Part shown: positions 943 to 23,598 of the stretch, piece by piece
Numbering within the stretch: the first letter of the stretch is position 1
How the letters are laid out: the number at the start of each line of letters is the position of its first letter
Source: Acutalibacteraceae bacterium
Lineage (GTDB): Bacteria; Bacillota; Clostridia; Oscillospirales; Acutalibacteraceae
DNA: 64,000 bases
Reading direction: 5' to 3'
Assembly: GCA_045604805.1 (NCBI GenBank)
Contig: JAZUOT010000030.1
Coordinates: 27,291 to 91,290, forward strand
Made by a program: the position numbers and the translations under genes
Notes under the pieces: model-generated
Databases searched by the model: none
The model's input: the letters and a program-made list of their open reading frames with translations, nothing else
What the model was told of the DNA's origin: nothing

Positions 943-1099
943 ATTAGGAAGATCCGGAATTTTATACACAATGGAGCATCGTTACTTTTTTGTGGCTTTT
1001 ATTTTTCAAAAAAATAAAATGCTAGCTTACTTAACTTTTATATCAAACTCTGTTAGAATAGCATTATGTTATGTTGTGGCTATTAGGAGTTTGGTCATT

Positions 1100-2032
1100 G
1101 TGACTGATGAAAATGTTACGTTTTGCGTTTGCGAAGAAGACCGCAATCTAAGATTAGATTTATTCATAGCTAGTAAACTTGAGAATAAAAGTAGAGCAAC
1201 GATCCAGAGATCCATTGCAAATGGTCTAGCAAAAGTAAACGAAAAATATGTCAATAAAAATTACAGAGTCAAACTAAATGATACTGTGAATATCACTATA
1301 CTTGAAGAAAAACCTACAGAAGCTTTTCCTCAGGATATACCGATAAATATTGCTTATGAAGATCGCGATATGCTCATAGTAAACAAAAATCAGGGAATGG
1401 TTGTACACCCAGCAGTTGGTAATTACTCAGGAACACTGGTTAATGCTCTTTTGTTTCGCTACGGAGACTCTTTATCAAAGATAAATGGTGGTTTTAGACC
1501 TGGTATAGTCCACCGAATTGACAAGGATACCAGTGGATTGTTATTAGTAGCAAAAAATGATTTTTCCCATCAATTTTTAGCAGCGCAAATAAGGGCTCAT
1601 AGTTTGAAACGTGAGTATGAAGCAGTTGTTTATGGAAATATAAAAGATGATGAGGGTACGATAGACAAACCTATTGCTAGAGATAGTATCAATAGAATTC
1701 GCAGGAAAGTAAGTTACGAAGAAAATGCAAAAAGTGCGATTACTCACTTTAAAGTAATATCAAGGTACCAAGATTTTACGCACATAAAGCTGATATTGGA
1801 AACTGGTAGGACTCATCAGATAAGAGTACATATGTCTCATATAGGACATCCTTTGGCCGGCGACCCTGTGTATGGCCCTAAAAAAAAGATAAAGGGTTTA
1901 ATCGGACAATGTTTGCATGCAAAAAGTATTGGCTTTATTCATCCCAGAACTCGAGAGTACATGGAATTCAATAGTAACTTGCCTGAATATTTCGAGAAAT
2001 TTTTAAGAAGGATTGGTAATAAAATATGCTGA
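1100..2032 (+). CDS. rluD: 23S rRNA pseudouridine synthase, RluA/RluD family
   Basis: S4-like N-terminus ([10 protein letters not shown]...SRATIQRSI) and catalytic motif [16 protein letters not shown]. The ORF is open from 920, but a GTG at 1100 behind AGGAG gives the normal length of about 310 aa. The start is uncertain (1091 or 1100). Confidence 0.9.
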
Positions 2033-2487
2033 GTATAAAAAGACAGGAAACTATACTAGTGGCTTTAGGAATAGCACTTATCGGTATCATAATAGGTTAT
2101 AATGCTCTGTACATTTCTTCGCCAGCTGAAACGGTTGTGATTTACGAAGATACTAATGTTGCAACGCAAGATGAAACATACACCCCGCAGGCATCGGGGG
2201 AGATAGAAACCATAGAAGAGACAGTAGAAAAATCAACTCCAGCTCAAGTTGAAAATGATACTGCTCAAGACAGGGTAACTGTTGTGGATAAAAATTCAAA
2301 GATAAATTTAAACTCTGCAAATATAGAGGAACTACAGCAATTAGACGGTATAGGTCCTTCTAAAGCCCAGGCAATTATAGACTATCGTGAGAGCAAAGGT
2401 GGTTTTTCTAGTGTTGATGAGCTTGCCGAGGTAAAAGGTATTGGAGAAAAAACACTGGAAAAGATACGTATTATGCTTACTGTTTAG
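2026..2487 (+). CDS. comEA: ComEA-family helix-hairpin-helix DNA-binding protein
   Basis: N-terminal TM helix. C-terminal segment [55 protein letters not shown] is a typical ComEA HhH pair. Confidence 0.85.
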
Positions 2488-5400
2488 GCGAGTTGTGTCG
2501 ATAAACGTTTTCTTCTTCCACCCATAAAATATTTAAAACAGATTTAATTAGCTGCAGAATGTTTTGGTTTGCAGTTAATTTTATACTTAAATATGGCTTA
2601 GTTCCCGCACTGAATCTTATTTGATTCTCACTTTTTGATATTAAATGCGATAACACTTTCATATCTATTTTATTTATAAATAACAACAAGGTATCTTCTT
2701 TTTGTCTAATCTCATATATACTACACTTGCTTGCTTGATTTCTCACAATTGCTATATCAATCAAATTCGTAATACTTTGGGGTATTTTACCGAAACGATC
2801 TTTTAATTCACTGTTTATCTCTTGTGCGTCGCCTTGGTTGTGAACCATGGCGATTTTTTTGTACATATCAAGCCTTTGCTGAAGATCTGTTATATAGTTT
2901 TCTGGAATAAAAGCTTGTATTGGGATATCTATCAGGCAGTCGCTTTCATCTGTTTCATCCGAATTAATAATTCCACGCTCGCTATCAAAAGCATCAGATA
3001 AAAGTTTCACATACATATCATAACCGACAGCATCCATACATCCATGCTGTTCTCCTCCGAGAAGATTACCTGCTCCTCTTATTTCTAGATCTCGCATTGA
3101 TATTTTAAATCCCGCACCAAATTCCGTAAAATTCTTAACAGCATTTAGTCTTTTCATAGCAATTTCAGTAAGCACTTTACTTCTTCTAAAAGTAAAATAC
3201 GCATAAGCTCTTTTTGAAGATCTTCCGACTCTGCCACGGATTTGATGCAACTGAGATAAGCCGAACTTGTCTGCATCCTCTATTATCAAAGTATTCACAT
3301 TTGGAACATCTATACCTGCTTCTATGATCGTTGTACATATGAGTATATCTATCTCATGGTCCAAAAGTTTTTGCCAAATATCAGAAAGCTCATCCTCTGT
3401 CATTTTAGAATGCGCTATTCCGAGTTTAGCATCAGGGATATCTTGGGTTAATTTTTTTGCAATTGCCGTTAAAGACTCAATATTATTTCTAAGGTAGTAT
3501 ACCTGTCCACCACGCCTTAATTCTTTTCGGATCGCTTCGATTATTAACATCCTATCGTATTCTAAAACATAGCTTTGCACAGGCATACGCTCTTTAGGGG
3601 CTTCCTCTATAGATGACATGTCCCTAATACCAGATAAAGCCATATTTAATGTTCTAGGTATCGGGGTTGCAGATAGTGTAAGAACGTCTACATTTTGCGC
3701 CATATTTTTGAATTTTTCTTTTTGCAAAACTCCGAAGCGTTGTTCTTCATCTACTATGACTAGACCAAGATCCTTAAATTTCACATCTCTTTGGACGAGT
3801 CGGTGTGTGCCTATGATTATATCTATTTCACCGCGTTCCAGTTTGCGTATAATTTCATTTTGTTCTTTTTTTGTTTTAAACCTAGACAAAAATTCTATTT
3901 TCACAGGGAAACCATCAAATCTCTCTACTGCTGTTTTATAATGCTGCCAGGCCAAAATAGTGGTAGGAACAAGAAAAGCGCATTGTTTGCTGTCTTGAAC
4001 GCATTTGAAAGCGGCTCTAAAGGCTACCTCTGTTTTCCCAAAACCAACATCTCCACACAAAAGACGATCCATGGGCTTAGAGCTTTCCATATCCTTTTTT
4101 ATCTCGTTTGCTGTTCTTATCTGATCATCTGTTTCCTCGTATTCAAACCTAAGTTCGAAATCCCTTTGCCAGTCATTATCTTCAGAAAAGGCATAGCCTT
4201 TTGCATTCATGCGCTTTGAATATATCTTTATCAGATCTTTTGCTATATCTTTTGCCTGAGCTTTGGCTTTGTTTTTTTGTTTTTGCCAGTCTTGGCTGCT
4301 CAAGCGATTGAGTTTTACAGCTTTATCATCGCTTGAACCTATATATTTAGCGACCATATCCAGCTGAGTAACTGGCACGTACAGAATATCATCTTTTGCG
4401 TACAATATTTTTATATAGTCTTTGGTAACACCCTGTGTTTCCAATCTGTGTATACCTTTAAATATACCAACACCATACAAAGAATGGACAACATAATCTT
4501 CTACTTCAAATTGTGTAAGCGAAGACACTTTTTTAGCGTTTTCATTGTATGCTGTTTTTATTTTTCTGTTTTTTTTATGGGCACCATAACTTATTACAAC
4601 GGTTTTTGTGTCAATGTATTCAAAGCTTTCAGTTAGAGAATCATCAAAGATTAAGACTTTTTTTATATCAAGTTTGGAGTAATTTTTTGAAAATCTCTCG
4701 CAAGCTATATCTGATCGCACAAGTTCTCCTAATATTTTTTCACTATTACGTTCGCTACCAGAGAATATGCATATTTTGTAATTATTTGAAATATATGAGC
4801 GTATATCTTCTTTTAGATCCTTAAAGCTACCAGTCCAAAGTGGCAAATTTTTAGTATTTATATTTAAGTTATGGTTTTGGCTTAAGGCTAGTGGATATGA
4901 TGTTTTAAGAAAATTATCAACAAAACAAATAGGATTACGTGATATTAATTTCTTTGCACTAGAAATGTCTTTCAAAAATTGCTGAGTATCAAAAATAAAT
5001 TCGCCATTTTCTAGAAGTGAAACCAGCTCTTCACTTAGCAAATTAGCACAGCCATCATAGAATTTTTTGCAACTTTCATATTCATTTACGAAAATCAAAT
5101 CTCCGTCTTCCAGATAAGTCAAAAGGCAAGAATCTTTGTCATATATTAGGGGTAAAAATTTATCAAAGCTACTGATGTGCATTCCACTAGACAGTAAATC
5201 TATGTCTTTATGATTTTCAGGCTGGACCTGCTTTATCTGTGAAGCCAGAGCTATTTTATTTTCTACGAGAACTTCGCGGCATGGCAGTACAGTTATTTCA
5301 TGCACACTATTTTGTCTACGTTGATTTTCTATATTGAGCTCTGATATAGTATCTATTTCATCTCCGAAAAGTTCTATACGATAAGCTTTAGAGGAAAATG

Positions 5401-7620: not shown

Positions 7621-8376
7621 TCAAACAAAGATGCTTTTTGCAAGATTGTTTAACTTATGAAGCTGCCAAACATCATTCGCTCCCATGGCAACATACGGGT
7701 TTTCAGCAATAAGGGCATCAACTTTGTGACCAGAGTTGAGTAAGATCTTTATCGTGTCTGGTAAGTAATATTCTTTTTGAGCGTTACAATTATTTATTTT
7801 TTCAAGAGAAAAAAGTAGATCATTCTTATCAAAAACATACACACCAGAACTTATTTCTTTTATCTTTCTCTGTTCTTCGCTTACATCTTTTTCTTCAACT
7901 ATAGCCTGCAGCAAAGCACTATTATTATCTCGAATTATTCTGCCATAGCCACTTGGATCTTCTAGTACAGCCGATACAACAGTTGCAGAATTATTTTTAC
8001 TGAAGTGATATTTTAGGGTATTTTCTAGTGTTTTGCTATCAATAAAAGGGGCATCACCATTTAAAACAACTACTGAATTGCAAGCATTCTCTTTTAGGAT
8101 TTTTTCAGCACACATAACAGCATGACCAGTTCCTAGGCGTTTACTCTGAAAGACTGTGCACACATCCGGGAATTTTTCCTTCAAATAAGATTCAACTATG
8201 TGATTTTTAAAGCCTGTAACTACACAAACCTTTCCGCAAGAAATATCTAAACAAGATTCGATCACATAACTTAGCATTGGTTTACCTAAAACCTCTGACA
8301 TGACTTTAGGCTTATCTGAGTTCATGCGTTTTCCTTCGCCAGCAGCCAGGATGACACAGTAAGTACTAGGTTTCAT
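7621..8376 (-). CDS. glmU: GlmU-like UDP-GlcNAc pyrophosphorylase domain only (no left-handed beta-helix acetyltransferase domain)
   Basis: N-terminal VILAAGEGKRMNSDKPKV signature and glmU-prs synteny. The ORF stops at 251 aa, in the linker helix. Only 61 nt separate it from prs. Confidence 0.8.
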   Translation of the reverse strand: MKPSTYCVILAAGEGKRMNSDKPKVMSEVLGKPMLSYVIESCLDISCGKVCVVTGFKNHIVESYLKEKFPDVCTVFQSKRLGTGHAVMCAEKILKENACNSVVVLNGDAPFIDSKTLENTLKYHFSKNNSATVVSAVLEDPSGYGRIIRDNNSALLQAIVEEKDVSEEQRKIKEISSGVYVFDKNDLLFSLEKINNCNAQKEYYLPDTIKILLNSGHKVDALIAENPYVAMGANDVWQLHKLNNLAKSIFV

Positions 8377-8456: not shown

Positions 8457-8474
8457 CACGCAAAACGCATGAAA
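8457..8474. promoter_or_regulatory. 18-nt element CACGCAAAACGCATGAAA, copy A (identical copy at 36784..36801)
   Basis: Perfect 18/18 match to the second copy. Both lie 19-20 nt beyond a TTGAAA -35 hexamer on the minus strand. The minus strand reads TGCGT-TT-TGCGT, a direct repeat. Confidence 0.5.
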
Positions 8475-8636: not shown

Positions 8637-8666
8637 GTTGATACTGTAAATGTTGATACTATAAAT
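8637..8666 (+). promoter_or_regulatory. tandem 15-nt duplication forming a near-consensus promoter for the giant gene
   Basis: GTTGATACTGTAAAT followed by GTTGATACTATAAAT. This reads as TTGATA (8638-8643), a 16-nt spacer, then TATAAA (8660-8665), about 25 nt upstream of the ATG at 8690. Confidence 0.4.
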
Positions 8667-8689: not shown

Positions 8690-8914
8690 ATGACACAAAG
8701 GGAAAAATATTATAAACATAAAGTAATGAGAATATTAATTGATAGCAGAGACAAAAATGAAGCAAAAAACAATCTGGAGATGGCTCAGATTCATCTATCA
8801 GATGGAGAGATTGAATATCTGAAAAATATATACAATAATTGCCGTGGTGGATCTTTTATAAGCTTAGGAGATAACACTTTAAGCATGCAAGAACTTGATG
8901 AAGTTGCAGGAGGA
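8690..8914 (+). other. 75-aa leader region ending in LSMQELDEVAGG (double-glycine processing motif)
   Basis: Fits the LSxxELxxIxGG consensus of C39-peptidase-processed leaders. It aligns with the leader of the 33428..36658 gene: GEIEYLKNIYNN versus EEIDTLKNFFQN, and LSMQELDEVAGG versus LTFSQLDDVAGG. Confidence 0.6.
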
Positions 8915-11900
8915 GTACCACTCAAGTATTATATTTCCCGCAAAGAGGCAAAAAAACTACACGAAATGTTAAATAAGCTCACTGTTAATACTGGTAAACA
9001 AGGAGATACTATACATACTATTTACGGTGAACGTATTTCTCAGTCGAGAACAGCTGCCACACAAGAACAAGTAGAAGAATTTATGAGTCTTTTTGAAAGA
9101 AATCATCCTGGCGCCCCCAACAAACTGGACGTCAATGGAAACGAAGAAGTATTTAGTGATTTCGGGCGTTTCCGGGACCTAATAGATGAGGGACAAATAG
9201 TTTCTTCAGAAAAAGGTATTGAAAATAGTGAGCTAGCATATAACCTAGCAATGGCTTTTCACGGCTCAGTAGAACTTACTGCAGACTCTGTTCCTAATCA
9301 GGATCAAGACTTTGCAAACAATCTTGCTCAAGCTCTCAGCGATGGTAATTTTAATGCGTTTGGGCATTTTGGTATGAATAGAAAAGATGATCTTGTTAAT
9401 AATATAATGAAATGTCAGCATGAAAGCCTATTTTTAAGCGGTGAAGAGATAAGAGTAGATATGCTTGACTTTGGAAGGAACTTGTTTAAGAGTTTGCCGT
9501 CTTGTGAAGTAGGTACATGCATAAGTACTGGTAAAGAACTGGCAGCTGCTTTTGAGAAAGCTAACCCAACTGAAAAAGAATCTATTGCTGAATTCAAAAT
9601 GGGTATTTTGATAGAAACTCTTCAAAAAATACGTGATAATGGTTCTTCTAATGTAGATGATGTTGCTTTTGGGAAAGAAACTGGCCTAACTGCAGGAAAT
9701 CTATCTCGCCACCAAGCGGGTTGTACGCTTGGGACTTACCGTGAAACACATAATTTTGATCCTTTTAGTAATATTGATTTTTCTCATTGTGAGGAGATAT
9801 GTAAACAGGCAAGAGAAGTTTATGAATCTTCTATTTCTATGGGGTACGAACTTGCAAGCAATCCGCTATTTTTTACGCGCCTCGCCTTGTTTTTTAGTAA
9901 ACTAGCACCATTTATTGAATTTACAGAAAAAAAAGGAAAAAGTGAAGAAGGCACCAAAAATCGTAATGGTGCAAATGGAGGTGGAAGTGAAACTAGCTCC
10001 TTGCTGGCTAGTGCTGTTTCTCTGTCCTCTTTTGGTGCTATTTCTCAAACCGGTTCGGAAGATAGCTCTCAAACCGCTTCGGAATCTAGGTCTCAAACCG
10101 GTTTGGAAGATAGCTCTCAAACCACCGGTTCGGAAGACGCTACCGAAGAAGAACAACGATTAAAATTATTAGATAAAATGGATCCAGACGTTATAAATTT
10201 GAATGATGTTGTATATACATCTGTATTTTTTGAAAATTTTTTTACAAGTCAATCATCCAAAATTTATGAAGATCTTATGAAGGCTTTGTCCTCGGATAAA
10301 TTGGACTTTAGTACAAAATATGTCGCACTCTGTTTAGCTATGTGTGTGGAAAGTGGATGTCGTTACTTCAATACAGCTATAAGCAAATTTGTGGACTCAT
10401 TAACAAAATCAGAGCAATCTATCCCAGAATTGACACCAATTTTGATGGCATTTTTAAAAGGAGTTTTTTTTAGGTTCGAACATATTAGAAACAAAAATAT
10501 AGTTAGGACTGCGATAATTCTAATGCCTAGGTTTAGAAAAGAATATGAGTATGGAGAATTAAGTGTTGCTCTATTATGTATGTTGGTGCGTGGTGCTACT
10601 TTAGAAAATGGAGTAGGAGTAGGAGTAGCACTAGAATTAAACTTTGCAGATGTGGTGTCAGGAGTGTACGACGTCATATATAGAATGATATGTTTCGATC
10701 TTACAAACTCCAGAAGTGAGAAAAATGGTTCTATATACATTTCCAAAGAGGCTCAAAAATTTATCGAATACGCTTGTAGTTTGATTCGTCAGACAGCTTG
10801 CTCTCCATATGTTCGTGATAGCTTTAACAGCGTATTAAGCGGAATTAATATGGGATTGGAAAATTATGCGCCAAAAGAGGGGATAAAGCGAGAAAAATAT
10901 GTTATAGACTTTTATGCTAATACTGTCGTTGTATGTACTATAGAATTACTTAGTGACTTAGTGAATGAATATCCCAGTCTTTGGAAAAATAATACAAAAA
11001 TTTCATCTAATTTATATCAAGTTTATAAGAATTTGATGAAATTTGCAGGATGTAATAAAAAAATTAATTGTAAGTTGACACCCAATAGTAACAGTGAAGG
11101 TGGATTAGCGATCAAATACCCATTGTTTGATCTATTTAAAGATATATGCGGTAAAAAGAAAGAAGCCTTTGACCAGATTAAGGCTGATTTTGCTTTATAC
11201 TTGCATAAGATAGACCCGGTTCTTGCTGCTATATTTCTAATTAATTTGTCTGAGGTTCAAGTTCGAGAAGTGGTTAAATTATTGCATGATCAAAAATATG
11301 AAGGACTAGAAACAATAATGGGGGGTCTTATGTACAACATATTCACAAAAGAACAATCGGAAGAAGAAAAAGCCAAACGTTTTATTTCAATGCTTCCTCT
11401 TGAAATAAGATTTGATATAGAGGCGCTTAGCACTCTGGTTACGGGTATTATTGAAAAATGCGATGAAATTGCCAAAGTGGTAGTATGCCAATCACTGGAG
11501 TCGAGACGGATGGTGTATTCTCGTAAAGTTGACCTTAAAGAAAAGAAGATGCTTGAAATTTCAAATGCAATATCCCCCCTTGAAGGTGAAAAACTTAGTG
11601 ATGAGAAAGTAAAGCTCATCGAAGGTGCTAGGAACGAGCAAACCGTTTTGAATATAGCCCATCGAACACAAAAGGGGTCATTACGTACACGGTTGAACTT
11701 TTGGTTGATGGTTCTTCAAAATTCAAAAGGTACACAATTAACTCCATTTGGTAACATGATTTTTAATAACGAAGATGCCGTGCGAGACCTCCTTAATAGA
11801 GAGCAAGGCAAATATATGATAAGGCAGAAAGCCAACTTAAAAAAGTTAAAGGAAGATTCAGAAGCCTTTGAGTCTGAAATTAACTCATCAGAAAAAATTA

Positions 11901-14900
11901 AGAATGCGAAAGAATCACTATTAGAATATTGTAATACTATTTTCTTATACGCATTGACAATAAGTAACTTAAAAGACATGCAAGAAGGGGATTTAAAAGT
12001 CAAACAAGAAGAACACTTTTTTGACGTTGTTGAAGTCGTGAGCAAGTATCTTAAAGATTTTAAAAATTTCGTGAAACTGCTTGACATTATTTTCGATCAA
12101 ACAGGAAAGCACCATTCCTTGGGTAAAATATATGAAGCCATGCAATCTAAACCAGGAGAGTGCCTCGCAACATTAATATTTGAGTTTAGAAGGGTGCTTG
12201 CTAGTAAGGAGCTTGCTACTTTTGAAGAAAAGGAAGCTCTTGTAAAAGACTTTTGCGCTCAGATAAGAAAACTCACTGAAAATAAAAGCTCAAATAGAAA
12301 AAAATTGTGCAGTAAATACATGGAAACAATTCTTAAAGCCGTTAGAAGTATGAGTGTTTCCCTAATCGCCCTAAACACAGAAAGCTCAATACAACTGTTC
12401 GAATCTATAATCTATGGATTTTGTGATGTTAATTTTTTTGGATCTCCTGAATTTGCGAATGTAGTGCTCGATGTAGCACATGACGCGCTTGGAACTCGGC
12501 ATATACACCAAGGGAAAATCCTTGAAAAAACTATAGAAGCTTACCTGAGAATGATAAGGATAAGGATCAATTTATTGGGACAGAATACAAAAAATCTACC
12601 TTTACAACTATTCCCTAAGAATAGTTATACAGAAAGAGAATATACATATTTTATACCGTCGTCTGAAATGGAAATAACAATAACTAAAAATTGGGGCATG
12701 TTTTTAGACCGTCTATGGCGAAAAGGAAATAAAATGTTCGAGGACATAATAGATTGGTGGGAGGATAAAGCCGAAGATTATACTATAGAAGAGACAAAAA
12801 AGATTGAATCAGAACTAAAAGAACTAAAAAAACCAGAAGAACTAAAAGAACTAAAAGAACCAGAAACACTAGAAGATATTATAAAAGGAATAGAAGAGCT
12901 TAAATCAGAAATAGAAAAAGAACTAGAAAAACTAAAAAAACCAGAAAAACCAGAAAAACCAAAAAAAGAATTAGATGACCTAAAGGAAAAATTAGATGAC
13001 CTAAAGAAAAAATTAGATGTCCTACAAAAAGATGCAGAAAAAGAATTACAATTAGAATTACAAGTAGAATGCATTTACTACTTATCTTTGTTTTTGTTGG
13101 AAAGAGACAAAAGTGGCAACTACAGAGAAAATTTCAAGAATAATAGTAATTTTTTGGACGTTACTAATCTCGCTGTTTGTTTCTGCCGCAGGCCCGATAC
13201 TATGGTAGTTGTATTGCTCAAATATTTGGAATTTTTTGACAGTGATTTCGCAACTAAGGTTAAAAATAAGTTCACTAGTATGTTAAATCGCGCATTGTCA
13301 AAAGAAGAGAAAGCCAGCTTAGATGCTGGAGAAGTAAAAGCCAGCTTAGATGCTAGAGAAGTAAAAGCACTTGATGCTATAGTCAAAAAAAACAAAAAAC
13401 TCTTTTTCTCAGAGTGTATGTTAGTATTGTCTGCTTGTGAGACGAAAATTGTGGAGTCGTTTTTCAAAGAAAAAGAAGTCTTCGATGCTTTCTCTGAAAA
13501 AAATCCTTATCTTGCGCTACACAACCGGGTAACGTCTGAATTGAATAAAGAGGAATCTACGATACCATTTAGAAATGAAATGAGGCCATTTTTTATTAAT
13601 GGAGAAGGTAGTACTTTAAGTATGAAAGCTATACCTTCTAGCAGTTATTTTGTAGATAGAGTGAAGCCATCTTCTACTAATGGAGCAGGTAGTACTTCAA
13701 GTAAGAGAGATGTACCTGTTATCGGCAGTTATTATGTAGATCCGACTGGATATGAAGTGGAGCCATTTTTTATTGGAGGAGAAGATATTACTTTAACGTT
13801 GAAAGGTCAACCTTTTAGCATTCATTCTATAGGTAAATCACATACGTCAGAGATGTCGATGCCAGAGATGTCAGAAGAAGACAAAGCTAAATTCTTTCTT
13901 TTCGTGGTGTCTAAAGAAATGTTTAGCATTGTGGGAAAAAATGAAGATGCAATATATCGCTATTTAGCAGGAGATAGTTTTGATTTCTTGCGTATAGGCG
14001 AAGTTTGTGGATTTAATGTAGAAGAAATTCAAAACTTTATAGATCTTTTCAGTAACATTAAAAAATTGCAAAGATTCCATAGCGGCATTGAAATTGTAAC
14101 TGGCACTTTGGGTAAAATACATTCATGTGCAGAGGTTATAGTATCAGATCTTGTGAAATCTTTAGATGCTCTAATTGAAAAACTTAAAGGATGTGGGGAA
14201 AATGAGGTAGGCTGTTTATTTCAATTGCAAAGATATCGTGAAAATTTGCTTTCCAGTCTGCTTCGAGAAAAAAACCCTGAGGAATTTTTAGCTCAGATAG
14301 AAGGTTGTTGTGGAGAACTTCATCTAGACGGTGTTAGAGAAGAAGTTATTAACGTTTTAACGGCAATTGCTAATTTTAAAACAGAACAAAAAACTAAATA
14401 TATACAGTTTCTAAGCGAACTTGTTCGTAAAATTAATCCTAAAATCATGAAATTTGTTGAAAAAAATATTAGAACAGAAAAAGGCAAAGTATTAGCTTAT
14501 AGGTTAATGGATAGACCTACTTCGGAAATAGGTTTGTATACAGAAGGATTTTTTCCATGTGTATTAAATGCGTGTCCTGAGGAAGAAGTGCTCGAGTTAA
14601 TTGAAAAGAGAAAATCATACTCACCAGTTATGTCAGCGATTTCAAAATCAAAGAATTATTCTAGGTTTGAGAACACATCTCGCAGATGCTTACTAAATTT
14701 ACCCTATTTTGATTTTAAAGAACTAAAAGACTCATTGCCGCTTGATGGTGTCATTTGGTGGCGTTGTTCGCATGCGATGCCTGGCCGTAAGCCGTTTGAT
14801 GAATATGGCACTACTGTAGCGAATATGATAGTACGCGATTCGACAGAATGCCTTTTCAGGGATTTAAGTGATGCTTCAAAAACATTGCAAATAGAAACAT

Positions 14901-17900
14901 GTAAGGATAGTATATTAGCAGTAGTGGGTCTGAGCAAAGAGGGGGTATTTTATGATAGAGAAGGGAAACCTGGTAATATTATTAAGGAGCCATTTTTTAT
15001 AGGAGAAGGAAATGGCTATACTGAAGAAAATGTAAAAGAACTATTAGTAAATATTGCCAAAAAAGTGCCCGTTCATGATCGCTTTGAATTTTTAGCTGAC
15101 CTACTCTCTCAGATTAGAGATTACGATAGAATCTTTCAGATGTACGATAAGAAATATGATAGATTTAGTCCAAAAGGAGAACTTCTGGTACGGTTGCTAA
15201 CGCATGTCTTTTTAAATCTTTCTAGCCCCGAAGATATAACTAGTTTTCTTAGCAAAATGGTCTTGTCTATATATCGTAAAAATGAGTTCAGAGACTCTTT
15301 TGTGGCAATGGAAATATTTCTTAATACAGTATTTGAAATTGCGAATGGAATCCAAGATCACGAAGAAAGAATGAAAGTAATAACTCTTGTCGGGGAGTTA
15401 ATATATAATAGATCAATAGCAACATCATTTTACAATACTGATCGTAACTTTGTGTTGATCAAATATGAACATAAAAACGAAATGGCTGCAAAGTTTTTGA
15501 ATAGATTCCTATTAAACGCATTAACCCCAAAAGATAGACTACAACTTGAAGAGCTGATCCAAGTCCTTTTATACTTTGAGCCTGTTGAAAAAATAAATAG
15601 TCAATTTGCAGGCATGCTTATCAAAGGACTCATCGAAAGACCTAATGGAGAAAAAAATATAGTCGACGTTATCTTTATCCTTTTAACTACTCCTTTTGTG
15701 TTGCGTAGTAATTACCTTATGAGTTCTAGAGGCAATATCTCATCTGAATGTCTGATTGGAATTTTTAGCGAAGCTCAAAAACTCGTCAATAAACATGATA
15801 AATTTCCAGTAGAACCTGAATATTTGACAGACGTTATAAGATATTTACTTGATAGATATATAGTTCGAATTTTTAAATCTGAAGATAAAACAACTCTTGG
15901 AGGTCTGGGTGTATGTGAAACGTGCATAGATATAATTGTACAGATGTTAGCCAAAGTAGCCAAAGAACAAATACCAGTTATCTTTAATAGTATTCTTCAG
16001 GATTATTTTGTTCCTAAAGGTATGTCCAAAGCCATCATAGAAAATGGAGGTTTTCGTCGTAATTCGTATGAACGCGAATGCGCTTGCGCTACATTTTTGC
16101 TAATATTCCTCCATAAAGTTATGCTTCGAGCACCAGAGTATGATGTTGTCAAAGAGCTTTTTACACGTCTTCAAACCTATAGCCTAGAAATGGAGAAAGC
16201 CTATTTTGAAAATCTCTTTACTACTGAAAATTTCTGTATGAAAATATGCGCTCGTTTAGTTAACGGAATCATATTTTCTCCGCAGTCTTTGTTAGCTCCG
16301 TTGAATATTAGTGGCGTGTTAAGGCATTTTTTCTATTTAGTAGAAAGAGAAGAGCGTATATACAGAGGAATCCACGATGTGGAGGCTGTACAACGGGAAA
16401 TTGAAGAAGGGAAAAAACCAGTTAAAGAAGAGAAAAAACCACGTCATTTATTACTATTCCGATCATCAAGTCGAAAAGAGCAGCCAAAAGAGCAGCCAAA
16501 AGAGTTTGTATCAAGCGAACAACTATTAACCGAATTACAGTGCGATGTAATGAAGGAGGAATCTACAAAAGTATCAAAAGAAAAAGACCAACTTGCTGGT
16601 TTCAATGAAAAAACAGAAGGAGACCTACTCAGTAAAATTGAAGCTAAAAAAGACGCCGAAAAAAAAGTAAGAGAGCAACAAAAAAAAATAAAAGATTTAA
16701 CAAAAGAAGTACAAAAATTAGAAAAAAAGATAGTAGACGAAAGATGCGATCTAGACTTGGAAAATGATAAATTAAAGGAATTCACGCGTGTTAGAAATGT
16801 AATGGAAAATTTAGTGGAACAACGGAACGCAGAGATAAAAAAAATAGACGAAATACCTGAAAATGAGCAAAGACCAGAAGATGTAGAAAGAAAAAAAGAA
16901 ATGGAGCGCTCAATTGCGAACCTTGAAAGTGAAAAAGATAGACTTGAAAAAGAAAAAAAAGAATGCGAGGATCGGTTAAGTGAGTTAGGCAAAAATTTGG
17001 AAGATCTAGAAGGAGAATATGGCAAAAAACAGGGTGAATTAGACGCTGCAAAGAAAGATTTAGACTCAGAAGTAAAACAAATGACTGAAGCAGAAAAGGA
17101 GTTATCAAAAGGAATTAAAAGTGGAGGAGATGTAAATTACTCAATAACAATTAGTCAAAGGGACCTAGACCTAGTGTTTGCAGGGAATTTAGAAACCGCA
17201 GAAAAGGAGGGACTTGCAAAGCTAAAAAATCAATTAGACGATAAAGAAGCTAGCTTAGAAAAGGCAAAAGCTGAATTAGAAAATAAAAAAAAGGACTTTG
17301 AAGAGCAAAGAGATACTTTACTGCAGGAAAATGGAATAGAACAAGATACATTAAATCTGAGCGAGGATCCTGTTAAACAAGTAGAAGCAATAAGAGAAAA
17401 AATAAAAGAAAAAATAAAAGACCAAGGAAAAGAAGAAGAAGAAAGAAATGCAAAAGATAAAGAAGAAAAAATACTAGAAAAAATGGCGAAAGAATATGAA
17501 CTTGAAGAAACAAAACTTGGACAAGAAATAGAAAAATTAGAATATGAAATATATGTAAAAGAATTATCTATGGTAAGCTTATCAACAGACTTACTAAAAG
17601 ACATAACAGAAACATATGGCAGCCCAGAAAAAGCGATATCTGCTAAAAAGAAGGATGTAGAGGATGAAAAACTAGACGAGGAAGACAGAACTAAGCGGAT
17701 CGAAGTCTCAAAAGGGATAGTACGTGCAAAGCAGGAAGAATTATCGAAAAAAAATGATATGTTATCACGAGCGTCGGCAACTGTACTAAGAATAGAAGAA
17801 GAATTAAAAATTAAAGTAGCCGAATTAGAAGCCGTACGAGAACGCTCAAGCCGAATAGATGTTGAGATAACAGAGTTAACCGAACAAAGAAAAGCAAAAC

Positions 17901-19387
17901 ATGAAGAACAAACAAGAAAACTTGAAGAATTTATTATGCAAGAAGAGGCTAAGGAAGATGCGGGAAAACAATCTTGTTTCAAAGATGATATTCGAAGATT
18001 AGCACAAAAAGAAGCTTTTAACCTACGACAAGAAATGAGCGAATTATCTGAAGAAATCGAGGATCTAGACAATCAAATAAAAGAAAAAAAGCAAGAGAAA
18101 TTAGCATTACCAGATAAACTAGAAAAAGCAGAAAAAGCCGTAAAACAAAAAAAAGCTGAATTAAGCTCGGTACAACAGAGTATGGGTAAAGTAAATGACT
18201 CAACTCGAGTCATTGAAGGGGCACTAAGGCAGGAAGGAGAATATATACTTAAACTTGAAGCAGACTTAGCTTCAATAAGAGAAAGCATAAAACAAAATGA
18301 GCAAGAAGTAAAAAATCTGGAGGCTGTAGCAGCCGCAGTAAATGGTGTGCCATGGTATCTAATTAATGACTGTTTAATCCCAAAAACGGAAGAATTCTAC
18401 AGAGAATTATGTGAAAGTAACATGATAGGAAAATACTTCCATAAATCTTTCAATAAGGTAAGATTAGAATTACAACAATTTAGGAGCGACTCAATAGGAA
18501 AACAAATTGAAAAATTAAATGAAGAAAAGAAAAAATGTGAGAGAAAATTAAAAAAAACAGGGGAGAAAATAGAACAAACAGAAGAAGAAGAGCTTAAAGC
18601 AAATGATGCGATTGACCTTATATCAAATGACGATCAATTGTCTGGTGCCCAAAAAATGGCTAAAATGCAACAATGGCAAAAAAAAATTACTGATGCACGA
18701 AAGAAACGTGAAATTCTATTGGAAGAAGAAAAAAAATGGAAAAACGAATTAGAAAAAATAGAAGAAGACTTAAATCCACTTAAAGAAGTACAGAGAAAGG
18801 TAAACGAAGGAAAGAAAAGAAAAGAAGATATGGAGCGAAAATACCCACAACTAAAAGGATTAGACGAAGCATTAAAAAAATTAGGGCAAGGAAAATTTGA
18901 CTTATTCTCAGAACAAAAAAAGCTAAAAGAAGAAAAAGTAAAAGAATTAAACATAGAAAAAGGAAAAGCAGCAGAAGAAGCAAAAAGAAAAGCAGCAGAA
19001 GCAGCAGCAGGAAAAGTAGCAGAAGTAGCAAAAGCAGCAGAAGAAGTAGAAAAGGAAAAACAGGAGGTAGAAACAAAAGAAAAAGGAGTAGAAAGAACAG
19101 AAAAAACAGTAAAGAAAAAAGAAAGAAAAGCAGCAGAAAAAGAAAAAAAAATAACAGAAGCAGTCAAAAGAAGAAAAGAGTTAGAATCAGAGGCAAAAGA
19201 AAGAAGATTAAAAATGCTAGAAGAAGCGTTAAATGGAACACTCATGCCTACTACAGCAGGAGGAGTAGTAGAAGGAGAAGGAAAAGGAGAAGGAGAAGGA
19301 AAAGGAAAAGTAAAAGGAGAAGGAGAAGGAGAAGAGAAGAAGAAGAAAAAGAAGAAAAAGGAGAAAAAGGAGAAAAAGGAGAAATAG
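8690..19387 (+). CDS. giant 3565-aa protein: double-glycine (Nif11/bacteriocin-type) leader, long helical core, about 1000-aa K/E-rich coiled-coil C-terminus
   Basis: Single uninterrupted ORF. ATG at 8690 lies 9 nt after AGAGGGTG (the ORF track starts at GTG 8678). No Sec signal peptide, LPXTG motif or clear TM segment was seen by eye. No enzymatic motif was recognised. Confidence 0.8.
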   Translation: MTQREKYYKHKVMRILIDSRDKNEAKNNLEMAQIHLSDGEIEYLKNIYNNCRGGSFISLGDNTLSMQELDEVAGGVPLKYYISRKEAKKLHEMLNKLTVNTGKQGDTIHTIYGERISQSRTAATQEQVEEFMSLFERNHPGAPNKLDVNGNEEVFSDFGRFRDLIDEGQIVSSEKGIENSELAYNLAMAFHGSVELTADSVPNQDQDFANNLAQALSDGNFNAFGHFGMNRKDDLVNNIMKCQHESLFLSGEEIRVDMLDFGRNLFKSLPSCEVGTCISTGKELAAAFEKANPTEKESIAEFKMGILIETLQKIRDNGSSNVDDVAFGKETGLTAGNLSRHQAGCTLGTYRETHNFDPFSNIDFSHCEEICKQAREVYESSISMGYELASNPLFFTRLALFFSKLAPFIEFTEKKGKSEEGTKNRNGANGGGSETSSLLASAVSLSSFGAISQTGSEDSSQTASESRSQTGLEDSSQTTGSEDATEEEQRLKLLDKMDPDVINLNDVVYTSVFFENFFTSQSSKIYEDLMKALSSDKLDFSTKYVALCLAMCVESGCRYFNTAISKFVDSLTKSEQSIPELTPILMAFLKGVFFRFEHIRNKNIVRTAIILMPRFRKEYEYGELSVALLCMLVRGATLENGVGVGVALELNFADVVSGVYDVIYRMICFDLTNSRSEKNGSIYISKEAQKFIEYACSLIRQTACSPYVRDSFNSVLSGINMGLENYAPKEGIKREKYVIDFYANTVVVCTIELLSDLVNEYPSLWKNNTKISSNLYQVYKNLMKFAGCNKKINCKLTPNSNSEGGLAIKYPLFDLFKDICGKKKEAFDQIKADFALYLHKIDPVLAAIFLINLSEVQVREVVKLLHDQKYEGLETIMGGLMYNIFTKEQSEEEKAKRFISMLPLEIRFDIEALSTLVTGIIEKCDEIAKVVVCQSLESRRMVYSRKVDLKEKKMLEISNAISPLEGEKLSDEKVKLIEGARNEQTVLNIAHRTQKGSLRTRLNFWLMVLQNSKGTQLTPFGNMIFNNEDAVRDLLNREQGKYMIRQKANLKKLKEDSEAFESEINSSEKIKNAKESLLEYCNTIFLYALTISNLKDMQEGDLKVKQEEHFFDVVEVVSKYLKDFKNFVKLLDIIFDQTGKHHSLGKIYEAMQSKPGECLATLIFEFRRVLASKELATFEEKEALVKDFCAQIRKLTENKSSNRKKLCSKYMETILKAVRSMSVSLIALNTESSIQLFESIIYGFCDVNFFGSPEFANVVLDVAHDALGTRHIHQGKILEKTIEAYLRMIRIRINLLGQNTKNLPLQLFPKNSYTEREYTYFIPSSEMEITITKNWGMFLDRLWRKGNKMFEDIIDWWEDKAEDYTIEETKKIESELKELKKPEELKELKEPETLEDIIKGIEELKSEIEKELEKLKKPEKPEKPKKELDDLKEKLDDLKKKLDVLQKDAEKELQLELQVECIYYLSLFLLERDKSGNYRENFKNNSNFLDVTNLAVCFCRRPDTMVVVLLKYLEFFDSDFATKVKNKFTSMLNRALSKEEKASLDAGEVKASLDAREVKALDAIVKKNKKLFFSECMLVLSACETKIVESFFKEKEVFDAFSEKNPYLALHNRVTSELNKEESTIPFRNEMRPFFINGEGSTLSMKAIPSSSYFVDRVKPSSTNGAGSTSSKRDVPVIGSYYVDPTGYEVEPFFIGGEDITLTLKGQPFSIHSIGKSHTSEMSMPEMSEEDKAKFFLFVVSKEMFSIVGKNEDAIYRYLAGDSFDFLRIGEVCGFNVEEIQNFIDLFSNIKKLQRFHSGIEIVTGTLGKIHSCAEVIVSDLVKSLDALIEKLKGCGENEVGCLFQLQRYRENLLSSLLREKNPEEFLAQIEGCCGELHLDGVREEVINVLTAIANFKTEQKTKYIQFLSELVRKINPKIMKFVEKNIRTEKGKVLAYRLMDRPTSEIGLYTEGFFPCVLNACPEEEVLELIEKRKSYSPVMSAISKSKNYSRFENTSRRCLLNLPYFDFKELKDSLPLDGVIWWRCSHAMPGRKPFDEYGTTVANMIVRDSTECLFRDLSDASKTLQIETCKDSILAVVGLSKEGVFYDREGKPGNIIKEPFFIGEGNGYTEENVKELLVNIAKKVPVHDRFEFLADLLSQIRDYDRIFQMYDKKYDRFSPKGELLVRLLTHVFLNLSSPEDITSFLSKMVLSIYRKNEFRDSFVAMEIFLNTVFEIANGIQDHEERMKVITLVGELIYNRSIATSFYNTDRNFVLIKYEHKNEMAAKFLNRFLLNALTPKDRLQLEELIQVLLYFEPVEKINSQFAGMLIKGLIERPNGEKNIVDVIFILLTTPFVLRSNYLMSSRGNISSECLIGIFSEAQKLVNKHDKFPVEPEYLTDVIRYLLDRYIVRIFKSEDKTTLGGLGVCETCIDIIVQMLAKVAKEQIPVIFNSILQDYFVPKGMSKAIIENGGFRRNSYERECACATFLLIFLHKVMLRAPEYDVVKELFTRLQTYSLEMEKAYFENLFTTENFCMKICARLVNGIIFSPQSLLAPLNISGVLRHFFYLVEREERIYRGIHDVEAVQREIEEGKKPVKEEKKPRHLLLFRSSSRKEQPKEQPKEFVSSEQLLTELQCDVMKEESTKVSKEKDQLAGFNEKTEGDLLSKIEAKKDAEKKVREQQKKIKDLTKEVQKLEKKIVDERCDLDLENDKLKEFTRVRNVMENLVEQRNAEIKKIDEIPENEQRPEDVERKKEMERSIANLESEKDRLEKEKKECEDRLSELGKNLEDLEGEYGKKQGELDAAKKDLDSEVKQMTEAEKELSKGIKSGGDVNYSITISQRDLDLVFAGNLETAEKEGLAKLKNQLDDKEASLEKAKAELENKKKDFEEQRDTLLQENGIEQDTLNLSEDPVKQVEAIREKIKEKIKDQGKEEEERNAKDKEEKILEKMAKEYELEETKLGQEIEKLEYEIYVKELSMVSLSTDLLKDITETYGSPEKAISAKKKDVEDEKLDEEDRTKRIEVSKGIVRAKQEELSKKNDMLSRASATVLRIEEELKIKVAELEAVRERSSRIDVEITELTEQRKAKHEEQTRKLEEFIMQEEAKEDAGKQSCFKDDIRRLAQKEAFNLRQEMSELSEEIEDLDNQIKEKKQEKLALPDKLEKAEKAVKQKKAELSSVQQSMGKVNDSTRVIEGALRQEGEYILKLEADLASIRESIKQNEQEVKNLEAVAAAVNGVPWYLINDCLIPKTEEFYRELCESNMIGKYFHKSFNKVRLELQQFRSDSIGKQIEKLNEEKKKCERKLKKTGEKIEQTEEEELKANDAIDLISNDDQLSGAQKMAKMQQWQKKITDARKKREILLEEEKKWKNELEKIEEDLNPLKEVQRKVNEGKKRKEDMERKYPQLKGLDEALKKLGQGKFDLFSEQKKLKEEKVKELNIEKGKAAEEAKRKAAEAAAGKVAEVAKAAEEVEKEKQEVETKEKGVERTEKTVKKKERKAAEKEKKITEAVKRRKELESEAKERRLKMLEEALNGTLMPTTAGGVVEGEGKGEGEGKGKVKGEGEGEEKKKKKKKKEKKEKKEK
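10043..10141 (+). repeat. four in-frame 24-nt tandem repeats (SQTGSEDS units)
   Basis: TCTCAAACCGGTTCGGAAGATAGC, TCTCAAACCGCTTCGGAATCTAGG, TCTCAAACCGGTTTGGAAGATAGC, then TCTCAAACCACCGGTTCGGAAGACGCT. Confidence 0.9.
12812..13030 (+). repeat. cluster of in-frame tandem repeats (27 nt x2, 9 nt x3, 21 nt x3)
   Basis: ELKELKKPE/ELKELKEPE at 12812-12865. CCAGAAAAA x3 at 12941-12967. (E/K)LDDLKEK-type 21-mers at 12968-13030. Confidence 0.9.
13313..13378 (+). repeat. 27-nt in-frame tandem repeat, 2.4 copies (ASLDAGEVK/ASLDAREVK/ALDA)
   Basis: GCCAGCTTAGATGCTGGAGAAGTAAAA, then GCCAGCTTAGATGCTAGAGAAGTAAAA, then GCACTTGATGCT. Confidence 0.9.
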
Positions 19388-21726: not shown

Positions 21727-23598
21727 ATGGTGGCGGTAATTTTGGAACAAAGCAAGCTTGAAAATATTCTTTTAAAAGTTCAAAGGCCAGGTAGATATGT
21801 TGGCGGAGAATTAAATAGTGTATATAAAAATTTAGATGAGACTGGTATACACTTTGCCTTTTGTTTTCCAGATGTATATGAAATTGGGATGTCATATTTG
21901 GGCATGAAAATAATATATAGCCTTTTAAATTCTATGGACGGGGTATGGTGTGAAAGAGTTTTTGCGCCTTGGCCAGACATGGAAGAACAGATGAGAAACA
22001 ACGATATATTTTTGTATAGTCTCGAAAGTAAAACTGAGCTTTACAAATTTGATATTATAGGTTTTACTCTCCAGTATGAATTGAGCTATACAAATATTTT
22101 GAATATGCTAAGTTTGGGTGGCATTCCACTTTTAGCGAAAAAGCGTAAAGGCTTAGAAAATCTTGTTGTGGCTGGAGGACCTTGTAGCTGCAATCCTGAA
22201 CCTCTTGCTGATTTTATCGATGTATTTTTCTTGGGTGAGGGAGAAAATAGCGTAAGTGAGTTTGTTGATTTGTACAGTAAAAGTAAGGAAAGCGGAGATG
22301 ATAGGGCTAGCTTTTTGAGAAAAGCTGCTCAAATTCAGGGGGTATATGTGCCTTCGCTATACCGTATTACTTATAATTCTGATGGAACGTTGGAATCTGT
22401 TATTCCTGAAGAAGGAGCTCCCAAACAAGTAAAGAAAAGCATAGTACTTGATCTTTCCAAATCGCATTTTCACGAAAGTTTTCCTGTTCCTTTAATAGAA
22501 GTGGTGCATGATAGAGTAGAAGGTGAAATTTTTAGAGGTTGTATACGTGGGTGTCGTTTCTGTCAGGCTGGATTTATATATAGACCTGTACGCGAAAAAG
22601 CTGCTGATGTTGTTAATGAGCAATGTAAGGTCTTATGTCAAAATACAGGACATGATTCTCTATCTTTATGTTCTTTAAGTTCCAGTGATTATTCTCAGCT
22701 CAGTGAATTGATAAAATTGTTGGATGAATGGACTGAGCAAGAAAAAATTTCGATTTCTCTGCCATCTTTGAGGATAAATAGTTTATCTGATGAGCTTATC
22801 AATAAGATCAAATCATTTGGTAAATCTGGGCTTACATTTGCTCCAGAGGCAGGTACTCAGCGTTTAAGAAATGTTATAAACAAAAATGTGGACGAAAATG
22901 AAATATTTAGCACCTGTAAAAAAGCATTCAAAAATGGGTGGACTAATCTTAAGCTGTACTTTATGTTAGGTTTACCTACTGAAACGGAAGATGATATCGT
23001 CGCTATACCTGAGATGGCTAATAAAATCATAGATACATACTATGAAGATAAGACTTTGCCTAAAAAACGCCCACCCAAGTTGACAATAAGCACGGCGGCT
23101 TTTGTGCCAAAACCATTTACTCCTTTTCAATGGGAAGCACAGGATAACATAAAGACAATGGGAAAAAAACAAAAATTGCTTATAGGTAGTAACAATAACA
23201 ATAAAGTTAAATGCAACTATCATTGCGCTCAAACAAGTTTTATAGAAGCGGTTTTTGCCAGGGGTGACAGAAAACTTTCAAAAGTTCTATTGAAGGCACA
23301 TAGGCTTGGTTTAAAATTTGACGCTTGGACCGAATATTTTGATTTTAAAAAGTGGTCGGAAGTTTTTAAGTTATGCAAAATAGATCCAGAATTTTATGCT
23401 TGCAGAAAACGAAATTTTGATGAAATATTTCCTTGGGATCATTTGGATTATGGTATTAGTAAAGAATTTTTAATAAGAGAATGTCAAAAGGCACACCAAA
23501 CAGAAACTACAAAAAATTGTAAGGAAGAGTGCCAAAATTGCGGTGCTAATTGTTTTGGTGGGGGTGTTTGCTTTGAAAAAAATACGTGTACGATTTAA
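21727..23598 (+). CDS. B12-binding-domain radical SAM protein (TIGR03960-like)
   Basis: 623 aa. RPGRYVGGELNS N-terminus and CIRGCRFCQAG (CxxxCxxC) cluster motif. Followed by its usual DUF2344 partner. Confidence 0.85.
   Translation: MVAVILEQSKLENILLKVQRPGRYVGGELNSVYKNLDETGIHFAFCFPDVYEIGMSYLGMKIIYSLLNSMDGVWCERVFAPWPDMEEQMRNNDIFLYSLESKTELYKFDIIGFTLQYELSYTNILNMLSLGGIPLLAKKRKGLENLVVAGGPCSCNPEPLADFIDVFFLGEGENSVSEFVDLYSKSKESGDDRASFLRKAAQIQGVYVPSLYRITYNSDGTLESVIPEEGAPKQVKKSIVLDLSKSHFHESFPVPLIEVVHDRVEGEIFRGCIRGCRFCQAGFIYRPVREKAADVVNEQCKVLCQNTGHDSLSLCSLSSSDYSQLSELIKLLDEWTEQEKISISLPSLRINSLSDELINKIKSFGKSGLTFAPEAGTQRLRNVINKNVDENEIFSTCKKAFKNGWTNLKLYFMLGLPTETEDDIVAIPEMANKIIDTYYEDKTLPKKRPPKLTISTAAFVPKPFTPFQWEAQDNIKTMGKKQKLLIGSNNNNKVKCNYHCAQTSFIEAVFARGDRKLSKVLLKAHRLGLKFDAWTEYFDFKKWSEVFKLCKIDPEFYACRKRNFDEIFPWDHLDYGISKEFLIRECQKAHQTETTKNCKEECQNCGANCFGGGVCFEKNTCTI

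Follow-up and report, generated by a model that had tools for sequence, protein, structure and literature searches.

How large a protein can be served by an N-terminal double-glycine (GG) leader? The question is raised by a 64,000-nucleotide stretch of an Acutalibacteraceae genome (contig JAZUOT010000030.1; the whole stretch is referred to as the window), in which an open reading frame (ORF) of 10.7 kb at positions 8690–19387 (+ strand) encodes a protein of 3,565 amino acids, here called the giant. A preliminary description of this DNA had read it as a single ORF that opens with a bacteriocin-type leader and carries a cargo of roughly 400 kDa, far outside the range described for those ATP-binding cassette (ABC) transporters that contain a peptidase (PCATs) and cut such leaders. 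We found the ORF to be uninterrupted and its product to have a mass of 408.8 kDa and a pI of 5.6; after removal of the leader behind G75, a cargo of 3,490 residues and 400.2 kDa is left, against cargos of approximately 66–115 residues for the characterised PCATs. What sequence comparison adds here is the modularity of the leader, which the giant shares with a second protein encoded in the window (ORF2) and with a public protein (P0001).

The leader and its three carriers

The leader of the giant comprises amino acids 1–75 (8690–8914, +), with predicted helices at residues 3–18, 22–31, 38–52 and 66–72; ORF2 and P0001 carry homologous leaders. It ends in a double-glycine processing box, LSMQELDEVAGG (amino acids 64–75; 8879–8914, +), and a cut after G75 is predicted to leave VPLKYY as the mature N terminus. 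The fit to the GG-leader consensus, which had been proposed from inspection of the sequence, holds at every position: the giant agrees with L/I/V(-12)-x3-E(-8)-L(-7)-x2-V/I(-4)-x-G(-2)-G(-1) at six of the six defined sites, as does P0001, while ORF2 agrees at five (Q at -8). An AlphaFold2 (AF2) model of low confidence is all-helical over the leader and places the helix of residues 66–72 directly before the GG.

To score the site, we built a position-specific scoring matrix (PSSM) from nine classic GG leaders; its scores serve as a lead only and do not stand for the outcome of a database search. Among the 58,831 stop-free 15-mers in the six frames of the whole window, the giant site ranked first with 23.5 bits, while the best unrelated site reached 11.4 bits and the background was -22.1 ± 6.95. 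The P0001 site scored 21.4 bits, and the ORF2 site 10.8 bits (rank 4 in the window).

ORF2 (33428–36658, −), located just upstream of rnpA–yidC–jag, encodes a second leader-bearing orphan of 1,076 amino acids and 121.3 kDa that is identical to the public protein P0002. Its leader, amino acids 1–65 (36464–36658, −), ends in LTFSQLDDVAGG followed by GGGG and aligns with the leaders of the giant (E = 1e-6) and P0001 (E = 1e-5). The cargo behind it (1,011 residues, 114 kDa) contains a putative divergent macrodomain of the microbial PARG-like type at amino acids ~670–908 (33935–34651, −) with the motif GCGAFGN, matched by TIGR02452 (E = 1.6e-8; 34.4 bits, short of its cutoff of 50) and by PF10021 (E = 0.0086), and has a Pro-rich C-terminal tail. 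A word-indexed search with ORF2 found no homologue besides itself, and a query concatenating ORF2 and P0001 again returned only ORF2.

P0001 is a public NCBI protein of 1,061 amino acids on a 46,777-bp contig. The start has probably been annotated 14 codons too far upstream: counted from the internal Met15, the sequence begins with MAQLVL, continues through ILVDSRDRYEAKNNLAMAGLHV and ends its leader with NSLSMQELDEVVGG, followed by VLRV, so that the leader has 75 residues as in the giant and the similarity ends thereafter. The cargo of 972 residues (110 kDa), by the searches made an orphan, contains three near-identical Ser/Glu-rich repeats (with SSSSEEDVDKGKTNVRRKEKS), a C-terminal hydrophobic stretch of ~74 amino acids (two to three transmembrane [TM] segments) and a basic tail.

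In an all-versus-all BLAST comparison, the three cargos showed no mutual similarity. The leader alignments, on the other hand, end at the GG and in register in every pair of the three proteins, and similarity extends over the whole 65–75 residues, beyond the GG box alone. Since homologous leaders of 65–75 amino acids stand on three unrelated cargos and the similarity stops at the GG, the N terminus of the giant behaves, at the level of sequence, like a separate leader unit that can be transferred and whose boundary is a canonical GG processing site. The observation is far beyond chance. In the last 14 residues of the three-way alignment, N-14, L-12, L-7, D-6, V-4, G-2 and G-1 are invariant. 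Of these, L-12, L-7, V-4, G-2 and G-1 are the positions that dock into C39 peptidase domains, which supports reading the module as a GG leader. In the structure of PCAT1 with its substrate CtA, residues -7 and -12 form a "hydrophobic knot" with the C39 domain and residue -4 sets the specificity (PMC6959990), and for the isolated C39 domain LahT150, the last 13 leader residues are the minimal recognition motif (PMC6363468). No other export or anchoring signal was found at the N termini of the giant, ORF2 and P0001.

We looked for further carriers of the leader. A two-leader profile run against the protein collection gave nothing useful, and neither a three-leader profile against metagenome and viral contigs nor a tblastn search of plasmids with the leader found further leader-bearing genes.

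An hhalign comparison with the ProcA2.8 leader aligned only the last 15 residues, with 53% identity. As no homology was detected over the whole leader, we rejected membership in the Nif11 family and describe the leader, from its sequence, as a novel N-terminal extension that ends in a GG box of the Nif11/class II type. Two further candidates were discarded. An N-terminal ubiquitin-like fusion, suggested by ~75 residues ending in GG, would be expected to show a β-grasp, and the prediction (of low confidence) is all-helical while the sequence fits the PCAT consensus. A prepilin-type signal, suggested by the GG followed by FTIL in ORF2, is not followed by a hydrophobic stretch.

The giant gene and its product

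The frame of the giant runs without interruption from GTG 8678 or ATG 8690 to a stop codon at 19385–19387 (+), with 3,565 codons counted from ATG 8690, and a Shine–Dalgarno (SD)-like GAGGGTG precedes this ATG at a spacing of 9 nt. With a per-codon stop probability of 0.076 at this base composition, 3,569 stop-free codons would occur by chance with a probability of ~1e-122. The housekeeping neighbours have the same GC content, GC content at third codon positions (GC3) and codon usage, and the tandem repeats of the giant are low-copy, short and in-frame. Considering the length of the open frame, the neighbour-like codon usage and the short in-frame repeats, we take the giant to be a native coding gene; judged from the sequence only, neither composition nor repeats give any sign of an assembly chimera or artefact.

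A collection of 15 billion proteins lacks the exact protein, whichever of the five possible start codons is taken, but does contain ORF2, which lies on the same 105.9-kb NCBI contig. In the public record, the gene may be called a pseudogene or be without annotation, or the collection may have omitted it. Directly 5' of the ribosome-binding site, a 15-nt sequence is tandemly duplicated (GTTGATACT(G/A)TAAAT; 8637–8666, +), and the repeat holds a promoter-like TTGATA-16 nt-TATAAA that would imply almost no 5' untranslated region. A strict sigma-70 scan of the + strand upstream of the start codon gave no candidate promoter.

Behind the leader, the first region (amino acids 76–430; 8915–9979, +) is predicted, with low confidence, to be helical and matches no family. 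It is followed by an acidic Ser/Thr-rich low-complexity linker (amino acids ~431–500; 9980–10189, +) that includes a 24-nt in-frame tandem repeat of 3.8 copies at 10043–10137. The all-α core (amino acids 501–1290; 10190–12559, +) has ~38 predicted helices and is weakly solenoid-like. A charged linker rich in K, E and P, in which short repeats occur in frame (KELKKPEE..., EKPEKPKKE), separates it (amino acids ~1291–1420; 12560–12949, +) from a central region (amino acids ~1421–2560; 12950–16369, +) that contains the motif (E/R)PFFI(N/G)GE three times. The copies lie at 13586–13636, 13763–13813 and 14990–15040 (+), with PFFI starting at amino acids 1633, 1692 and 2101; the first two are 59 residues apart and fall within a Gly/Pro/Ser/Thr-rich stretch that breaks the helical regions. 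Self-BLAST of the giant detected no internal repeat longer than this motif.

The C-terminal part is a K/E-rich region of ~1,000 amino acids with coiled-coil character (16370–19309, +), which ends in a Gly/Glu/Lys low-complexity segment and a poly-lysine tail (...GEGEGEEKKKKKKKKEKKEKKEK; 19310–19384, +). The content of K+E is 28–52% over amino acids ~2560–3565 and heptad-like segments occur at amino acids 2645–3513, in agreement with the K/E coiled coil of about 1,000 residues that had been described. The proposed ARM/HEAT-like core fared less well. Two single-sequence AF2 models of parts of the giant were all-helical with low confidence (pLDDT 39.7 and 44.6), and Foldseek matched them to HEAT/ARM solenoids at TM-scores of 0.11–0.22 only. 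With models and scores of this quality, we did not use the matches as evidence: the core is predicted to be helical and is only weakly compatible with an ARM/HEAT-like fold, and a HEAT/ARM identity is not established.

The lack of a Sec signal peptide, a TM anchor and a sortase motif, noted in the preliminary description, was borne out: the hydrophobicity profile of the giant has no TM-grade segment (maximum Kyte–Doolittle value 1.56) and none within the first 60 residues, and a motif search found neither LPXTG nor Walker A/P-loop, HExxH or RTX (GGxGxD) sequences. With no N-terminal hydrophobic segment and no LPXTG, a sortase-anchored surface protein was rejected, and so was an RTX substrate of a type I secretion system (T1SS), as the giant lacks GGxGxD and its C terminus is a poly-Lys tail. 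Weak profile matches to LmuB (E = 6e-7) and SMC (E = 0.14) cover only the coiled-coil arms of both profiles; being compositional and limited to the arms, with no ATPase motifs (no Walker A) in the giant, they do not indicate a relationship to SMC or Lamassu LmuB.

We searched for homologues of the cargo with amino acids 1–2440 in a word-indexed search of 5.8e9 protein clusters, which returned nothing similar, and with amino acids 1–1200 in an exhaustive HMMER search of 1.84e9 representatives. The sole match of the latter was P0001, confined to the leader (query residues 10–77, E = 1.6e-8, 54% identity). The giant matched no Pfam family at E <= 1 and no PDB sequence, and tblastn against GTDB genomes, plasmids, phages and JGI metagenomes found no homologue. 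Within the collections searched, the cargo is thus an orphan, with no detectable relatives outside the leader.

Export, docking or cleavage

As the most likely reading, we propose that a lineage-specific long GG leader directs the cleavage and export of very large proteins, a proposal that we regard as evenly poised between being right and being wrong. It draws on three independent leader-bearing proteins, not on one motif, with a transporter that is not seen in the window. For the giant, we infer cleavage, transporter, export and final location as follows. The last ~13 residues of the leader (L-12, E-8, L-7, V-4, G-2, G-1) would form an amphipathic helix and a GG kink, and these would dock into the C39 cysteine-peptidase domain of a PCAT/AMS-type ABC exporter encoded elsewhere in the genome. 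The peptidase would cut after G75, and the ~400-kDa cargo, starting from VPLKYY, would be exported across the single membrane independently of Sec. Because 3,490 residues cannot fit the ~15,000 Å^3 cavity of PCAT1, export would require processive threading of the unfolded chain, like that by HlyB-type T1SS ABC transporters. The conserved ~60 residues upstream would probably serve a further purpose of recognition or holding, like that of Nif11/NHLP leaders towards their partner enzymes.

The same leader would direct the 114-kDa protein with the PARG-like macrodomain and Pro-rich tail and the 110-kDa C-terminally membrane-anchored protein, and would thereby mark a small secretome whose big proteins would belong to the envelope or surface or act as effectors. 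The C termini look like envelope-retention features in their sequences, and the poly-Lys tail of the giant, the Pro-rich tail of ORF2 and the TM anchor with basic tail of P0001 would hold the three cargos at the envelope. More tentatively, and with a probability that we place clearly below that of leader-directed export as such, the GG/PCAT pathway may have turned into a general secretion route for cargos of 110–400 kDa in an uncultured Clostridia lineage, with processive threading through C39-ABC exporters. The cargos would then be a giant solenoid/coiled-coil fibre, an effector-like PARG-like macrodomain enzyme and a C-terminally membrane-anchored protein, an assignment that we consider equally doubtful. 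Such a route would breach both the cargo limit of ~100 residues and the model of alternating access with a closed cavity to which PCAT1 and CvaB have led, and would amount to a system by which monoderm bacteria secrete large proteins without Sec.

The known systems resemble this one in part. The substrates of GG/PCAT export (class II bacteriocins, ComC, microcin V, CtA) share the pattern L(-12)xxxE(-8)L(-7)xxV(-4)xG(-2)G(-1) with a helix predicted before the GG, the lack of a Sec signal and the use of one leader on unrelated cargos. They differ in having leaders of 15–30 residues, in contrast to 65–75 here, and cargos of ~20–115 residues, in contrast to 972–3,490, and here there is neither an adjacent transporter gene nor a curated leader model at threshold. 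The leaders of the Nif11 (N11P, TIGR03798) and NHLP families (ProcA, LahA) are closer in length, with ~60–80 residues, are likewise helical, end in ...LSxxELxxVAGG and stand, as one family, on diverse cargos (three unrelated ones here). Unlike them, the upstream ~60 residues of our leaders have no detectable Nif11 homology, and the cargos are large, folded-looking and of ~1,000 residues or more rather than short core peptides, with no enzymes modifying RiPPs (peptides made by ribosomes and modified after translation) nearby. By its sequence, the leader resembles both types, but three of their features are absent: no model matches it significantly, its cargos are not small, and neither a transporter nor modification enzymes are encoded next to it.

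A third likeness is to Faecalibacterium MAM, a protein of 135 amino acids with a 21-residue GG leader and an adjacent PCAT, for which PCAT export has been proposed on the basis of the leader, the neighbouring transporter, in silico docking and the envelope location, in an organism of the same broad order (PMC12184118). MAM is the largest natural nonbacteriocin example of a GG leader that we found in the literature. It shares with the giant the GG leader, an envelope destination (conditional here) and a Clostridia/Oscillospirales-type organism; the cargo of the giant is ~30 times larger, and the PCAT of MAM is next door whereas the window has none. The giant T1SS substrates (RTX toxins and adhesins, moved by HlyB-type transporters), finally, are comparable in being very large cargos in an unfolded state that pass an exporter of the ABC superfamily, as the giant would. 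Their signal is C-terminal and uncleaved, they carry GGxGxD repeats and they come from diderms, whereas the giant has an N-terminal GG-type signal and no RTX repeats and lies in a Firmicute-like gene order. To our knowledge, ABC exporters are known to move proteins of several hundred kilodaltons only in HlyB-type T1SS.

A number of observations weigh against export. PCAT substrates are usually encoded beside their transporter, and among the ORFs of at least 100 amino acids in the 64-kb window, nearly all of which were scanned, neither a C39 peptidase nor an ABC transporter was found. PCAT1 holds its cargo of 66 amino acids in a closed cavity of ~15,000 Å^3 and works by alternating access (PMC6959990), and export by the microcin V PCAT is length-limited and collapses at 116 amino acids (PMC10231218). 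The cargo of the giant exceeds the observed PCAT length limit ~30-fold, and a literature search for a GG leader on a cargo of >1,000 amino acids found none. The Nif11/NHLP and bacteriocin models to which the preliminary description had looked did not support the leader: among the Pfam and NCBIfam leader models, the best matches to the giant were NF038167 (E = 0.12; 12.5 bits, cutoff 32) and PF04604 (E = 0.34), none significant; the ORF2 leader matched no curated leader model; and Nif11 (TIGR03798 and Pfam) gave no match to the leaders at E <= 10. The upstream ~60 residues had no counterpart in a PDB profile search or in the ProcA2.8 comparison. In ORF2, the GG precedes four further glycines, and this run of six might just as well be a simple flexible linker. 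The Cys content of the giant (1.57%; 56 Cys) is that of its cytoplasmic neighbours, a long coiled coil with an α-solenoid is also typical of cytoplasmic scaffolds, and with three members in the leader family, the conservation statistics are thin.

Several of these points would be accounted for if the shared module of ~65–75 residues were a small helical docking or assembly domain for a common intracellular partner and the GG a flexible hinge. The giant would then be a cytoplasmic structural or tethering protein, made of an α-solenoid and a coiled coil (~150 nm, estimated from ~1,000 residues with a rise of ~0.15 nm), whose basic tail would bind membrane or nucleic acid. The failure to find a C39/ABC gene in the window, the nonsignificance of all leader models, the conservation over the whole module and not the GG box only, the cytoplasm-like Cys content, the scaffold-like helical repeats and coiled coil, and the glycine run in ORF2 all fit this account, and TIGR02452/PARG-like enzymes are normally cytoplasmic. 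Yet a docking domain leaves the invariant L-12, L-7, V-4, G-2 and G-1 unexplained, as it does the top PSSM rank with its 12-bit margin in the window, and it does not predict that the homology ends precisely at the GG in all pairs. Moreover, the N-terminal domain of P0001, if extracellular (with three C-terminal TM segments and the basic tail inside), needs an export signal, and no other is present. We consider both the docking domain and the cytoplasmic role of the giant unlikely, if the best of the alternatives.

Still less probable, in our view, is that the GG site is truly processed but without coupling to transport by a PCAT. The cut would then be made by a C39-like peptidase that stands alone or is fused in another way, and cleavage would activate or release the cargo or pass it to vesicles, lysis or a novel translocon. 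This possibility shares the leader evidence with leader-directed export and is favoured by the incompatibility of the cargo size with closed-cavity alternating access and the measured PCAT length limit; isolated C39 domains are also catalytically competent, as found for LahT150 (PMC6363468). However, such a peptidase was not seen in the window and no positive evidence points to an alternative route, and size alone does not exclude ABC export, as HlyB-type transporters, which have a C39-like domain, move very large unfolded proteins (PMC8277102; PMC10231218).

That the ORF is an artefact (a chimera of the assembly, a pseudogene in decay or an orphan that is not expressed), with a GG box by coincidence, as its absence from the protein collection (with ORF2 present) and the lack of cargo homologues in any collection searched might suggest, is very improbable given a 10.7-kb frame of such small chance probability, housekeeping-like codon usage and GC3 throughout, short in-frame repeats, an SD-like site at the correct spacing and a leader with two independent homologues.

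The consequences differ between the readings. PCATs are the textbook ABC exporters with the cargo inside a closed transmembrane cavity, and the structure (66 amino acids) and the export assays (collapse at ~116 amino acids) imply a hard limit on length. A GG leader on three proteins of 110–400 kDa would be a concrete case either of this limit being broken or of a second role for GG/C39 apart from peptide export, and either outcome would change how GG motifs are read when genomes are annotated, a task in which screening is now confined to short ORFs. If leader-directed export is true, the PCAT cargo limit is exceeded ~30-fold; monoderm (Gram-positive gut) bacteria could have a Sec-independent route for large surface or effector proteins, and a leader driving the export of very large cargo would be useful for the engineering of protein secretion. 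If the module is a docking domain instead, what is left is an orphan giant scaffold protein of an undersampled lineage.

Genomic setting

The giant gene is divergent from a glmU-like gene for a nucleotidyltransferase of 251 amino acids and is flanked by mfd–pth–prs–glmU on one side and by pfk, a radical SAM/DUF2344 pair, CNNM and coaX on the other. The position divergent from glmU and between housekeeping blocks, as given in the preliminary description, is therefore correct. Its reading as an accessory insertion is not supported by composition, as GC, GC3 and codon usage equal those of the neighbours; the nearest, if distant, relatives nevertheless lack the giant at the syntenic position. A recent horizontal acquisition of the gene is likewise unsupported by these three measures.

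Among 185,579 GTDB species, the best matches of the glmU-like protein were ~50% identical and came from metagenome-assembled genomes of goat-gut Clostridia and from Ca. Faeciplasma; those of prs were at most 70% identical. Given these low identities to the nearest GTDB matches, the source lineage is poorly sampled, among Clostridia of gut type. The relatives keep glmU–prs–pth–mfd and carry ppdK or transketolase genes upstream of glmU, never a giant ORF.

The glmU-like gene itself (7621–8376, −) encodes only the nucleotidyltransferase half of the enzyme, with the C-terminal acetyltransferase domain missing. Its closest relatives (L001–L005; at most 50% identity) match across an equally short length, and from these alignments the short form may be typical of the lineage.

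Between the glmU-like gene and the giant, the intergenic region contains a 17-mer, TTCATGCGTTTTGCGTG, a direct repeat of the form TGCGT-TT-TGCGT, that recurs upstream of ORF2. The first copy (8457–8473, −) faces the glmU-like gene and lies ~20 nt upstream of a -35-like hexamer TTGAAA; the second (36784–36800, −) shares the orientation of ORF2, whose start it precedes by 126–142 nt, and is again ~20 nt upstream of TTGAAA. The window contains two exact copies, compared with 0.11 matches expected even when up to three mismatches are allowed. The 17-mer may be a shared regulatory or transcription-factor site that links the loci of the giant and ORF2.

The remaining window is housekeeping, with ychF, jag–yidC–rnpA, pyrH–frr–uppS–cdsA–dxr–rseP–ispG–polC, dxs, a two-component system and feoB. 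Rfam and tRNA scans of the window were empty. The sole radical SAM gene of the window (21727–23598) is of the Radical_SAM_N2 type paired with DUF2344, with no RiPP context. An ORF of 339 amino acids (60841–61860, −) has weak matches to P-loop, STAND and AAA-type proteins (E from 1e-4 to 1e-2), with no family above threshold, and adjoins an NfeD/SPFH pair and feoB.

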